Notes: generated by a model not told the origin, from the letters alone. Counted from the first letter of the stretch, positions 15,280 to 63,464 are shown. The stretch: DNA of 64,000 nucleotides from Gloeomargarita sp. SKYB120 (GCA_025062155.1 JANXAM010000008.1:11786-75785), one strand, 5' to 3'. Program-made: numbers and translations.

Positions 15280-15480
15280 CCGCTGATCATCGCTGATCAA
15301 CGCTGGAACTTGCACTGAGTGCAAGCCTGTTGAACCTATCCAGTGATGGCTCACCAGTGCCAACTTCCTGCTTCATTGCACACGTAGCTCGTAGACCGAC
15401 TTCCATCGTTCCGCCGCCAGAGGTGGCTCCACAGGCAGCCACGGTCGGGCTGACCGCGGGGGCTAGGTAGGAGTGCACTA
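15280..15480 (-). ncRNA. predicted omegaRNA scaffold of the first TnpB
   Basis: Overlaps the tnpB 3' end; contains GTGGCTGCCTGTGGAG...TGAAGCAGGAAG typical of tnpB 3' ends and the hairpin CTTGCAC-TCA-GTGCAAG; boundaries inferred. Confidence 0.5.
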
Positions 15481-16513
15481 GATTGCAAGCGGCATTGCAG
15501 TCCCTATCAACTGGACTGTCCGAACCAAACCCACAGTGGGAACAGACAAACCACTCGCTACTACCTAACCCTTTATGGATATGTCCACATCTTGAACAAC
15601 GCTTGCTAGAAGGATACCAGCGGTCGGCTATCACCAACCGACTACCGTACAGCTGGCATTTGTATTCAAGTTGTCGTCTGACTTCGTACAGTCCTATGTC
15701 TGCTATGGTGCGTGCCAGCCAGCGATTCCTCAACATACCCCTCACATGCAAATCTTCGATTACGATAGTGCCGTGGTTCTTGGCTAGTCTCGAGGTTAGT
15801 TGATGGATGGCATTGGCACGTAAGCAGGCTATACGGTAGTGCACCTTAGCTATCCGTATTCTGGTCTTCTCACGATTGGCTCCTCCTTGGACTTGACGAC
15901 TCAACTTTCTTTGCAACCGCCGCAACTTCTGCAACGCCCCTTTCAAGGCATGCGGATTCTCAAAGACTTCACCAGTCGAAAGCACCGCGAGCTTCCGACC
16001 CCCTAGGTCAACCCCGACAACGTCTATTTTCTTCGGCGTGGGCTGCGGTTCAACCTCGTAGTGGAACGACACAAACCACCGGCCCGCTCGCCTGCTAACG
16101 ACGACGCTCTTTGGCTGAACCGCCGAGAGTGTCTCGTAGCACCGCACCCAGCCTATCTTAGGAAGTTTAATGCAGTTGCTGCTGATGCGAACCGACCCTT
16201 CAAGATAAAAGCTGTCGTCCCGGTTCTTCTTCTTGAACCGCGGGAACAACGCGGTCTCTAAGTCCCGTAGCGCCTGCTGGGGGGCGTAGCCCCAAGGGTT
16301 CTCCCGCTTAACTTCAGCAACCAGGCGCTTGTGCAGGTCGATGGCACTGGGGAGCTTTTGCTTGTGGTCGGGACGCTCCCGGTTGTGTTGAAACACTCCC
16401 TGGCAAACCTGCAGGCCCCAGTTCCAAGCGTGTCGTGCTACTCCCGCGTGCTTCGCTAGCAAAGTGCGCTGCTTGTTGTTCGGACGGAGCTCCGTCTTAA
16501 AGCCTAACAGCAT
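15287..16513 (-). CDS. tnpB: TnpB RNA-guided endonuclease (IS200/IS605/IS607 OrfB)
   Basis: MLLGFKTEL HTH start, RuvC-I VGVDLG, RuvC-II VIEDL, Zn finger CSRCG...CSHCG, RuvC-III DRDCNAACNL. Confidence 0.92.
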   Translation of the reverse strand: MLLGFKTELRPNNKQRTLLAKHAGVARHAWNWGLQVCQGVFQHNRERPDHKQKLPSAIDLHKRLVAEVKRENPWGYAPQQALRDLETALFPRFKKKNRDDSFYLEGSVRISSNCIKLPKIGWVRCYETLSAVQPKSVVVSRRAGRWFVSFHYEVEPQPTPKKIDVVGVDLGGRKLAVLSTGEVFENPHALKGALQKLRRLQRKLSRQVQGGANREKTRIRIAKVHYRIACLRANAIHQLTSRLAKNHGTIVIEDLHVRGMLRNRWLARTIADIGLYEVRRQLEYKCQLYGSRLVIADRWYPSSKRCSRCGHIHKGLGSSEWFVCSHCGFGSDSPVDRDCNAACNLVHSYLAPAVSPTVAACGATSGGGTMEVGLRATCAMKQEVGTGEPSLDRFNRLALSASSSVDQR

Positions 16514-60354: not shown

Positions 60355-60549
60355 ATGGGAGAAGCCAAACGACGCCAAGCCCAGGCGCAACCATCCCCCA
60401 AGGCGAACCAGGTGGCGCTTTGGTGGCAACAATTTCTCAAATGGACAACGCGGGGGACCTGGGTCGGGATTGGGTTGCTGGTGATCATCTGGGTCACGGT
60501 ACGGTTTATTGGGCCAGGTTTTGGGTGGTGGCAACTAGCGGGTGAATAG
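60355..60549 (+). CDS. DUF2839 family protein
   Basis: MGEAKRR...WTTRGTWVGIG..W..VRFIGP.FGWW. Confidence 0.85.
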   Translation: MGEAKRRQAQAQPSPKANQVALWWQQFLKWTTRGTWVGIGLLVIIWVTVRFIGPGFGWWQLAGE

Positions 60550-60789
60550 ATTGACAAAGACGTTGGTGGGCAGCGTTGCGCTCCTGGTGGCCCAACCAGT
60601 CTATGGCGGCCCCAACCCCACCGTACGTTTAGCTGACACACCGACGCCTGGCCCCTGGTTTGCTGCGCAACTCATTGCCCAGGAAATGAATACGACGCCG
60701 GGACGACCGTTGCGTATCTACGACCGACACATCGCCCATATGTTTGCCGTCACGGAAGCGTTGTGTCGCCGGTTTCCCCAGGTGCAGGG

Positions 60790-62567
60790 TTGATAACTGT
60801 TTAATGTTTTATGTACGCTTATATGGGCATCTAGCCATGAAATTGAGTGAGTGGTGCCAGCGGTTGTGCGTCTGACATTGAGCTACCAAGCGCGGATTGC
60901 CACCAGCTCAGAACAGCATCAGGTGCTGTCTGCCTACGCGGAATTATTTGGCCGGGTGGAGCGGTCTCTCTTTGCCGCGGTGGTTGCTGGGCGGGACAAA
61001 AACCAGATAAAACGGGAATTTCTGCAACGGTTTGGTATCACTGCTAGACAATTCAACAGTGCGCGTGTGGAGCTAGAAGGACGCCTACGGGCTGTCAAGG
61101 AACGTCAAGCAACACAAGTTGAACAGTTGCCGCAGAAGATACGTCAAGCACAACAGATTATTAAGAAGGAAAAACGTCGGTTTGTCTTGCACCAGAAGCA
61201 ACGCCGCTTGGCTAGGTTGCAAAGTCAACTGGCGCGTCTGGAAGCCGACAGGCGCAGTGGCAAGATACGACTGTGTTTCGGTTCTAATTCCTTATTTCGC
61301 CAGCAGTTTGCTCTGGCGGCCAACGGTTATCGCTCCCATGCAGAATGGTTAGCCGACTGGCGGTTGAGCCGCTCTCGACAGTTTTTCGTACTTGGTAGTC
61401 AGGATGAGACAGCCGGTAATGTGTCATGCCAAGCCGTACCGGAAGCTGACGGGATGTTCACGCTTTATCTGCGCGTGCCCGATGCACTCGTGCAGCGGTT
61501 TGCTAACTGTTTGTCTCCCGGGCTGCAACAAAGGGGGAAGAAAGTCTACCTGAAGCTAACGGGTATTCGGTTTGCGTATGGCCAGGACCAAATTGTACAA
61601 GCGTTGCAGGGAGTGAAGGTACGCACCACGACCTGTCGTAGCAAAGCCACGACCAAGCGTATTGGCACACCCGTCAACTATCGTTTCATACGGGATGAGC
61701 GTGGTTGGCGTGTGATGGTCAGTGTTGAACCGATGCCACCAGAGCCGGTGACCAACCGAGCGGCTGGTGCTATTGGTGTGGACATCAATGCTGACCACTT
61801 AGCCGTAACCGAAATGGACCGGTACGGGAATTGGGTGAGCTCCTGGCGGTTGGACCTAGACCTGGATGGGAAAACCGCTGGTCAGAAGCAGGCGGTGATT
61901 TTGGAAGCCTGCGCCCAGGTTGCGCGGTTAGCAGCAGAGAAGGGGAAGCCTTTGGTTGTAGAAGAGCTCGACTTTCAACGGAAGCGAGCACAACTAGAGA
62001 GTGAATCGCCCCGCCGTTGCCGCCAGTTGTCGAGTTTTGCTTACCGTAAGATTCTCACGGGTCTCAAGTCCGCTGCGTTGAGAGCGGGGGTGGAAGTGTG
62101 TGAAGTCAACCCAGCCTACAGCACTGTCATTGGTGCGGTTAATTACGCCAGGAAACTTGGCATTTCACCCCATCTTGCCGCGGCGTTGGTGTTGGCTAGA
62201 AGAGTTTTGCGCCTGAGTGAACGACCCGTTGGTCAGGGGACAGTCATTGTTCCTTGGCGTGGCGGTCATGTCACCTTCTCTCTACCTGCAAGGAATCGAG
62301 AGAAGCATGTATGGTCGTTTTGGCGGGAAGTTGCTCGGGCGCAAGCGGCGGTCGTACCGCAGTCACTGGGTCGTGCGAGTCTCCGGCTACCACCGGTTGG
62401 AGATGACCGACCACCTGGTCATCTGTTAGCCGACACATGGCCTGAGTGCAGCAGTGACTTGCCGGTGGGAGTCCGGCACGCTCCGCTCCTGCAGGTGGCG
62501 GGAGAAGTTGTTGGGAGTGCCGTTTGCCCAGCAGCCTGTGGATAATTGTCCATAGTTTTAGGAACGG
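60790..62567 (+). mobile_element. non-autonomous IS607-like element with tnpA stub and tnpB
   Basis: Follows host GG (60788-60789) and ends ...TTTTAGGAACGG; GGTTG is present at both junctions; MKLSEW stub at 60837. Confidence 0.8.
60851..62545 (+). CDS. tnpB: TnpB-related protein (long IS200/IS605/IS607 accessory type, no Zn finger)
   Basis: YQARI...YAELFGRVERSLF, LCFGS, RuvC-I GVDINAD, RuvC-II VVEELDF, VNPAYS, PHLAAALVLARR; true start uncertain. Confidence 0.85.
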   Translation: MVPAVVRLTLSYQARIATSSEQHQVLSAYAELFGRVERSLFAAVVAGRDKNQIKREFLQRFGITARQFNSARVELEGRLRAVKERQATQVEQLPQKIRQAQQIIKKEKRRFVLHQKQRRLARLQSQLARLEADRRSGKIRLCFGSNSLFRQQFALAANGYRSHAEWLADWRLSRSRQFFVLGSQDETAGNVSCQAVPEADGMFTLYLRVPDALVQRFANCLSPGLQQRGKKVYLKLTGIRFAYGQDQIVQALQGVKVRTTTCRSKATTKRIGTPVNYRFIRDERGWRVMVSVEPMPPEPVTNRAAGAIGVDINADHLAVTEMDRYGNWVSSWRLDLDLDGKTAGQKQAVILEACAQVARLAAEKGKPLVVEELDFQRKRAQLESESPRRCRQLSSFAYRKILTGLKSAALRAGVEVCEVNPAYSTVIGAVNYARKLGISPHLAAALVLARRVLRLSERPVGQGTVIVPWRGGHVTFSLPARNREKHVWSFWREVARAQAAVVPQSLGRASLRLPPVGDDRPPGHLLADTWPECSSDLPVGVRHAPLLQVAGEVVGSAVCPAACG

Positions 62568-62587
62568 TTGGCGGTGGGACTACCGAG
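62330..62587 (+). ncRNA. predicted omegaRNA of the second TnpB (scaffold plus flank-derived guide)
   Basis: The low-complexity TnpB tail reads through GCCGGTGGGAGTCCGGCACG...; guide inferred as the host sequence 3' of 62567. Confidence 0.4.
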
Positions 62588-63230
62588 CAGGTAGCGGCGC
62601 AATTCCGATGGGTGAATTTCGCATCCCCTGCGAAATGGCCGCTGCCATGAAACGTCAATTCGAGCCGAGTTCAACCCAAACGATTGTCATCCAAGTCGGT
62701 CGTCAATCCCAGAATTTGTCGATTCAGCCCTTAAACATCACAGGTGAGCGAGTCTTGGCCTGGTTGGATGTCGCAGAAACATTTCGCCCGTGGGTTCATG
62801 GCCGGGGCCAAATCCAGCAAATCATGGGTACCCTGCGACGGGTGAAAATTCCTGTTCTTTTGCCGGATGAACCCTTGCGTCGGCATGGTGTGCAGTTGTT
62901 TTTCGTAAGTACCGTGCCCAGCCCCAATGAGTACCTTATTGAGCTGTTCACATTCCCAGGTTGCCGAGTGGGAGCTTGTACCGTTGGTTCCTTCAGTGGT
63001 CGGTGGGGCGGCAAGTTGGCTATCCCTAAAAAGGAATGGCCCCGCGATACCCATCAAATGGTTCGTTTAGCCAAGGGTATCCAGGGACAATTTATTAAGA
63101 CGTGCGGAGCCTACTGCACTAGTTTTGTACAGTGGGTCAGCAATGGCGTGTTGTACGAAATCAGCGCCCGAGATGCCGACCGAGATAGCCTTGTGCAACT
63201 TGCCAATCAGGCCATCCAGGCCGGTCCGCG

Positions 63231-63464
63231 TTAACCTAACGCCTTTAACAGGCCAATTAATCCCTTGCCAGTGAGCAGCTCCAGAATAATCAGCGATACA
63301 AACCCAATCATGGCAAGCCGCCCGTTCAATCGTTCGGCGTATTCCGTAAACCCCACCCGCGACACGTCATCCACATACATTCGCGGTTCAATCGCAAAAT
63401 TGTTCAACCGCCCGCCACTTTCTACCGTGTAGCCCCGAGGCCGTGTCATTTCTTGCTGCGTCAT
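63231..63464 (-). CDS. high-light inducible protein (Hli/SCP)
   Basis: AERLNGRLAMIGF chlorophyll-binding helix; N-terminal RLNNFAIEP. Confidence 0.93.
   Translation of the reverse strand: MTQQEMTRPRGYTVESGGRLNNFAIEPRMYVDDVSRVGFTEYAERLNGRLAMIGFVSLIILELLTGKGLIGLLKALG

Follow-up and report, generated by a model that had tools for sequence, protein, structure and literature searches.

A His-type TnpB of clade RIIIr-4 and its predicted omegaRNA on a tnpA-less IS607 derivative in Gloeomargarita sp. SKYB120

We analysed a 64,000-nucleotide stretch of DNA from Gloeomargarita sp. SKYB120 (GCA_025062155.1 JANXAM010000008.1:11786-75785), here called the window and numbered from its first letter, in which a tnpB-like open reading frame (ORF) lies within a mobile element near the right-hand end. 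We consider it fairly probable that this locus is a functional TnpB-omegaRNA unit of clade RIIIr-4, carried on an IS607 derivative that lacks tnpA, and that it targets GGG-flanked empty sites by way of a rearranged D-E-H RuvC centre. The argument draws on the conservation of the protein, the context and exact ends of the element, the covariation of a structured RNA at its right end, and the selection acting on its copies in the genome.

A TnpB-like protein with a His-type RuvC site

The ORF encodes 564 amino acids, or 559 if the GTG at 60866 is the start; the identical database entry begins five codons downstream of the start at 60851. An earlier note, made from the sequence alone, had described a RuvC-I Asp in GVDIN and a RuvC-II Glu in VEEL, a DxNAA position that reads PHLAAA, and the absence of any CxxC pair. 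The first three are located in the ORF as D311, E371 and H441, and a motif scan of the whole protein, which has 10 Cys, finds CxxC nowhere. The end coordinate given there, 62587, lies 20 nt past the right end of the transposon at 62567 and takes in the predicted guide described below. The features of the protein are as follows.

60851-62545 (+): tnpB-like ORF, His type (clade RIIIr-4); residues 1-510 confidently folded, 511-564 disordered
61781-61783 (+): RuvC-I Asp, D311, in GVDIN (residues 309-313, nt 61775-61789); invariant in 61/61 relatives, aligns with GVDLG of canonical TnpB
61961-61963 (+): RuvC-II Glu, E371, in VEEL (residues 370-373, nt 61958-61969); invariant in 61/61, aligns with VIEDL of canonical TnpB
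62120-62158 (+): short helix, residues 424-436, where canonical TnpB has the C4 zinc finger (TNB domain); from the secondary structure of the AlphaFold2 model, the lack of CxxC and the hhalign alignment, which stops at YTS
62171-62173 (+): His441 at the RuvC-III Asp position, in PHLAAA (residues 440-445, nt 62168-62185); invariant in 61/61

An exhaustive family search returned 3015 cluster representatives (50% identity) at E<=1e-3 and 670 at E<=1e-30, whose source names are 'IS200/IS605 family accessory protein TnpB-related protein' or 'IS605 OrfB family transposase'. Conservation was read from 61 diverse members after alignment; these share 33-52% identity with the 564-aa protein, except for the nearest named relative, from Gloeomargarita sp. 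SKYG98 (84%). D311, N313, E371, H441, R450 and R451 are invariant across this alignment, and D323 and E457 are each kept in 60 of the 61 sequences. The consensus around the His is S-x-H-x-A-A-A-x-x-I-A-R-R, equivalent to D-x-N-A-A-x-N-I of canonical TnpB. Since His, Asp and Glu are invariant together, the D311-E371-H441 site looks rearranged, not decayed, and such joint invariance is to be expected if the metal site is rearranged and works. The earlier note had put forward a clade alignment and a structure model as checks, and had supposed that nuclease activity is altered or absent; the alignment, with the His kept in every one of the 61 relatives, agrees with an altered site and gives no support to an absent nuclease.

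The less studied TnpB clade that was suspected in that note can be named. Altae-Tran et al. 2023 (PNAS, PMC10691335) defined five major TnpB clades, among them RIIIr-4, whose members carry His instead of the RuvC-III Asp and have no C4 zinc finger; from conservation of this arrangement, those authors inferred RIIIr-4 to be catalytically active. The His and the missing zinc finger are, in other words, normal and already published traits of RIIIr-4 and not damage, and the 564-aa protein would by its sequence be an ordinary new member of this known clade. In the work of Nety et al. 2023 (CRISPR J, PMC10278001), 59 orthologs were tested, one of which, ortholog 39 from Nocardiopsis dassonvillei, is 529 aa long and labelled RIIIr-4. 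Its omegaRNA was clearly processed, and its scaffold of 466 nt was the longest of that set. A 75-aa stretch of ortholog 39 running from RuvC-I to RuvC-II (Supplementary File S2) matches our protein at 37% identity (BLASTP, E=2e-13), and the primer for the 3′ terminus of its scaffold corresponds to ...GUUCAGGAACGGU, which is also how the window element ends. Among the papers that could be searched, RIIIr-4 is named in these two alone, and a search beyond 2023 found no later characterisation of the clade.

The two proteins are alike in having His for the RuvC-III Asp and no C4 zinc finger, in their length of about 530-565 aa, in a long omegaRNA that overlaps the 3′ end of the gene, and in a shared scaffold 3′ end, ...AGGAACGG, with GGAACGG. 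They differ in that the window copy sits in a tnpA-deleted element of a cyanobacterium of the Gloeomargarita lineage, and in that miniature copies, described below, suggest that an RNA or right-end region of ~300-330 nt is required here as against the 466-nt processed species in Nocardiopsis.

The 564-aa protein is a genuine but remote relative of TnpB. It has no match in Pfam, TNB included; it reaches 32.4 bits with TIGR01766 (cut-off 32) and 35 bits with guided_TnpB, under the cut-off of 100, and a profile search of PDB sequences returns marginal TnpB/Cas12f matches only (E ~0.02-0.06). With hhalign, the WED strands, RuvC-I (GVDIN/GVDLG) and RuvC-II (VVEEL/VIEDL) align with the window's canonical TnpB, and the alignment halts at the YTS motif, which is where the zinc finger would begin. 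An AlphaFold2 model built from the 61 relatives has a mean pLDDT of 86.4 and a pTM of 0.78. It places a helix of 13 residues at the zinc-finger position and H441 in the first part of the last RuvC helix (residues 440-452). Foldseek matches the model to Cas12k, Cas12e, Cas12f, Cas12m, Fanzor2, the ISFba1 and ISDra2 TnpBs and bacterial RuvC (E 4e-8 to 3e-4), so that the second of the proposed checks yields a fold like that of Cas12k, Cas12f, TnpB and RuvC. Compared with canonical TnpB (ISDra2, ISFba1; PDB 8exa, 8iaz) and Cas12f/Cas12k, the protein shares the WED and RuvC fold, the equivalent RuvC-I D and RuvC-II E and the placement of the omegaRNA at the right end. It differs in having a helix in place of the TNB zinc finger, a RuvC site of the D-E-H type, an N-terminal REC region that is long and coiled-coil-like (residues 20-136), and an extra conserved C-terminal module at residues ~455-510 with RNRxKHVW; sequence similarity is marginal.

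That module follows RuvC-III (residues 455-510, window 62213-62380), contains E457, a beta-hairpin and the motif P-x-R-N-R-x-K-H-V-W, and has no counterpart in canonical TnpB; it may take the place of the TNB zinc finger that the protein lacks. The canonical TnpB of the window, at 15287-16513 (-), has a helix-turn-helix, OrfB_IS605 and a Cas12f1-like TNB zinc-ribbon domain, a DRDxNAA motif and a C4 zinc finger, in keeping with the contrast that the earlier note drew with the TnpB at 15-16 kb. In NCBIfam it matches IS607_TnpB best, with 271.8 bits and under the cut-off, and it likewise is without a transposase anywhere in the assembly.

The IS607-type element and its insertion site

The tnpB-like ORF lies in an IS607-type element of 1778 nt, 60790-62567, with a GG core at each end, which interrupts a gene for a secreted protein.

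60542-60789 (+): 5′ part of a split signal-peptide protein gene; ends in the target GGG (60787-60789), left GG core at 60788-60789
60790-60850 (+): left end, TTGATAACTGTTTAATG...; placed by boundary alignments, common to the four full copies and present in a diverged form in nine miniatures
60837-60875 (+): remains of the start of IS607 tnpA, 12 codons (MKLSEWCQRLCV*) that overlap the start of tnpB; similar to TnpA N-termini
62568-63234 (+): 3′ part of the split secreted-protein gene; junction as in the uninterrupted genes of relatives

When 60542-60789 is joined to 62568-63234, a 304-aa frame results (...FPQVQGWRWDYRAG...) whose junction is that of the uninterrupted genes in two relatives (L018 and L021); the empty-site DNA of L018 reads CAGGGTTGGCGGTGGGACTACC. 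The split falls at GGG|TTGG, the left junction is ...CAGGG|TTGAT and the right junction is ...AACGG|TTGG. Excision of 60790-62567 restores the gene exactly as in the relatives, and there is no target-site duplication. Because GG is found at both junctions and the target is not duplicated, we recognise the signature of IS607, that of a serine recombinase. Left ends in other phyla likewise open GGG(G)T...AAC(A/T)G. The interrupted gene is conserved, has no Pfam domain and is inactivated by the insertion; its homologues are intact in six of the eight other genomes of the genus, and in a seventh (G003) the homologue is broken by stop codons.

The tnpA remnant, ATGAAATTGAGTGAGTGG..., begins MKLSEW..., similar to the TnpA N-termini MKLSVWA... 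of L025 and L027, and is present in all four full-length copies in the genome. That the start of tnpA has been kept indicates that the gene was deleted internally. Among related loci from many phyla, gathered with a closer alignment of 18 sequences, an IS607 transposase gene lies directly upstream in 57 of 80. In two of three relatives checked, a 185-aa gene overlaps the start of tnpB and scores 132 and 196 bits against NF033518 (IS607 transposase; cut-off 110 bits). The window element is a non-autonomous derivative of the IS607 family minus tnpA. It shares with that family the GG crossover dinucleotide at each end and the lack of a target-site duplication, and autonomous relatives carry tnpB downstream of, and overlapping, a tnpA that is above the NF033518 cut-off; it differs in that its own tnpA is cut to 12 codons and its TnpB is His-type without a zinc finger, as opposed to the canonical D-E-D form. 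A Y1-type (IS200/IS605) mechanism was considered and ruled out by the GG at both ends, the adjacent IS607 TnpA of the relatives and the lack of a Y1 TnpA.

The right-end RNA, its guide and the target rule

The right end of the element contains a structured RNA, which we predict to be the omegaRNA scaffold, directly followed by the predicted guide.

62258-62567 (+): right-end structured RNA, predicted omegaRNA scaffold, ~310 nt, ending ...TGTCCATAGTTTTAGGAACGG; from covariation, strand bias and a conserved end
62568-62587 (+): predicted guide, the flank directly 3′ of the scaffold, TTGGCGGTGGGACTACCGAG; conservation among the copies stops exactly after GGAACGG

The RNA overlaps the final ~95 codons of the ORF, and the right GG core is at 62566-62567. 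RNAalifold on 13 copies gave 77 pairs, 20 of them with compensatory double changes. In these copies 97.3% of the cells pair, compared with 35-51% when the partners are slid by 1-3 columns, and none of 500 shuffles matched the observed pairing or covariation. G-U wobbles make up 20% of the paired cells and minus-strand pairing of the same structure drops to 77%, which together argue that the structure is specific to the sense strand. Across 49 right ends from several phyla two helices were recovered, with compensatory changes in 11 of 11 pairs (one pair, for example, is AU in 17, GC in 12, CG in 10 and GU in 5). Conservation stops sharply after GGAACGG (GGAGCGG in chlamydial members), and an end of this type is conserved family-wide as well as in the tested Nocardiopsis scaffold. 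Rfam has no match for the right-end RNA region, and a simple sigma-70 scan of the left end found no convincing promoter. As it stands, the layout of the right end would be the standard OMEGA one, the scaffold being part of the right end and the guide coming from the flank next to it.

The predicted guide doubles as the resumption of the split host gene, and in L018 the GGG of the empty site is followed by this 20-mer with a single mismatch. Of 13 insertions in the genome 12 have a GGG|Y target, as do all 24 that were resolved in other phyla. In resolved insertions the base after the core GG is a pyrimidine, and the right end always presents CGG before the flank. From this pattern we infer GGG as the target-adjacent motif (TAM); the G at position -3 is supplied by the target, as the empty site of the window insertion shows. 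An empty site would then read GGG plus guide match and an occupied site CGG plus guide match, so that position -3 would tell them apart if GGG is the TAM. A CAG TAM, suggested by the four full copies, was dropped once the miniatures were added and only GGG stayed constant. The 16-nt guides of 15 right ends match their own flanks only, and trans targets were sought without success; other matches to the 16-mers carry 1-2 mismatches, and only one of these follows GGG. Such a pattern would fit selfish homing and not regulation in trans.

Together these observations lead us to propose the following mechanism. The right-end ~310 nt would encode a scaffold that ends at the transposon boundary, GGAACGG, and the adjoining flank would serve as the guide. 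The His-type TnpB would bind this scaffold and recognise the empty donor site by GGG and the guide match, whereas the occupied site, with CGG at that position, would be spared. The D311-E371-H441 RuvC site would cut or nick the empty site, after which recombination would restore the element. We hypothesize that its role is transposon retention, as for canonical TnpB.

Copies in the genome and the competing readings

The genome assembly of this thermophilic host (2.48 Mb, 91 contigs, 96% complete) holds four full-length copies of the element, which are 85-88% identical in DNA, have open frames of 562-569 aa and keep all catalytic residues. In addition there are nine miniature derivatives of 400-510 bp, each composed of a left end of ~100 nt and a right end of ~300-330 nt; two right-end fragments and one decayed copy complete the set across the whole assembly. 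All copies open GG(G)T... and close ...GTCCATAGTTTTAGGAACGG. Between the four full-length copies dS is 0.33-0.44 and dN/dS is 0.17-0.22 over residues 1-470, which places the four tnpB copies under purifying selection. Over residues 471-564 dN/dS is 0.33-0.75 with lower dS, as expected if this stretch is constrained as RNA and not as protein; the same stretch is disordered in the model. The miniatures suggest a minimal scaffold, and they would need TnpA and TnpB in trans. They lie on contigs C11, C12, C22, C8 and C91 of the assembly (G000; L113-L121) and form two subfamilies, with every miniature at a GGG|Y site of its own. The decayed tnpB copy, with several stop codons, is at a contig end (G000:C19:1-951, L005/L015), and in the left end of the C5 copy (G000:C5:39370-39510, L112) a stretch of ~45 bp, tnpA-start remnant included, is duplicated in tandem.

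A search of nine further genomes from the same taxonomic family did not find this tnpB family, from which it follows that the His-type tnpB was probably acquired horizontally. In 61 records a relative is plasmid-borne, and Thermus phages carry distant relatives. Another genome of the genus has an IS607 tnpA with an in-frame TGA and no His-type tnpB (L124, G002:C1:1064819-1065223), indicating that other kinds of IS607 element have visited the lineage.

Several points weigh against the mechanism that we propose. Searches of the 96%-complete assembly found neither an IS607 TnpA nor a resolvase domain or Y1 TnpA, and homing coupled to TnpA therefore cannot operate from the assembled DNA; several copies lie at contig ends, and an unassembled autonomous copy is possible. 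The TNB zinc finger, which in canonical TnpB aids the loading of DNA into RuvC, is missing. Finally, ortholog 39, the one RIIIr-4 member assayed so far, was scored 'N' in the screen for a TAM by dsDNA cleavage with in vitro transcription-translation (IVTT) (PMC10278001).

The main rival gives these last points a different meaning. The protein could be an RNA-guided binder or nickase without dsDNA cleavage, an idea of the earlier note here transferred to a mobile element, in which the D-E-H site serves omegaRNA processing and target binding only, and it would aid an IS607 element otherwise than by double-strand breaks. In its favour, ortholog 39 processed a 466-nt omegaRNA and was negative in the dsDNA screen, and D-x-N-A-A has become H-x-A-A-A, with neither its Asp nor its Asn kept, in a protein that also lacks the zinc finger. 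However, the negative is a single IVTT result under one condition at 37 C, and the published scaffold of ortholog 39 extends one base (U) past the CGG end that is conserved family-wide, which may have shifted the guide register in that assay. The strict invariance of D, E and H and the near invariance of D323 and E457 are again what one would expect if the metal site works. Elsewhere among nucleases of the RNase H fold a His does bind metal, for example in the Argonaute PIWI domain (DDH/DEDH), Thermus RuvC and Cas9 RuvC-III, and this too speaks against a binder or nickase. We regard this alternative as unlikely overall, but it is the one to which we give the most weight. A broader form of the idea, which we think doubtful, is that RIIIr-4 TnpBs as a clade are not dsDNA homing nucleases but RNA-guided nickers, ssDNA cutters or binders with a GGG TAM, kept here for a role independent of TnpA. 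Four tnpB genes and nine promoter-plus-scaffold miniatures would in that case be selected without a transposase, for example for self-homing or for a host function.

It is also conceivable, if improbable, that the copies are functionless relics, left over from an IS607 invasion whose transposase has since disappeared, with ORFs that are intact only because too little time has gone by. The lack of TnpA in the assembly, the stops already present in the C19 copy and the failure to find the element family in the nine other genomes of the taxonomic family would all suit this idea. Against it, four copies at the divergence given above keep full frames, catalytic residues and a dN/dS of ~0.2, and the miniatures keep their RNA pairing through compensatory changes. 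Part of the divergence between copies may, however, be older than their arrival in this genome. The reading for which we see least room is that the protein has been domesticated as a TldR-like, RNA-guided repressor of transcription in the service of the host (the earlier note had allowed for a repressor); only the atypical active site and a genome without a transposase recommend it, and we judge it very improbable. The gene belongs to a mobile, multicopy IS607-type element and not to a fixed regulatory locus, interrupts a conserved gene and is not syntenic in relatives; its catalytic D and E are intact, unlike those of TldRs, and all 15 guides match their own flanks only. TldR repressors and Cas12m/Cas12k-type binders do share with it a non-canonical RuvC site in a TnpB-fold protein, but those are immobile, tied to fixed partner genes or targets and have lost catalytic residues, whereas the window protein is mobile and multicopy, with D and E kept and the His invariant. 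The His-type TnpB is a mobile-element protein and not a domesticated repressor.

We return to a functional RIIIr-4 unit as the reading that we favour. RIIIr-4 is one of the five major TnpB clades, and the locus is an unusually well-defined test case for it, with exact ends, a proven empty site and a minimal scaffold suggested by natural miniatures. It also yields a specific TAM prediction, with GGG at empty sites versus CGG at the occupied right end. Should the D-E-H site be active without a zinc finger, more chemistry would become known for compact RNA-guided nucleases; if the protein is instead a binder or nickase, it would provide a natural mobile-element precedent for a non-cutting TnpB.

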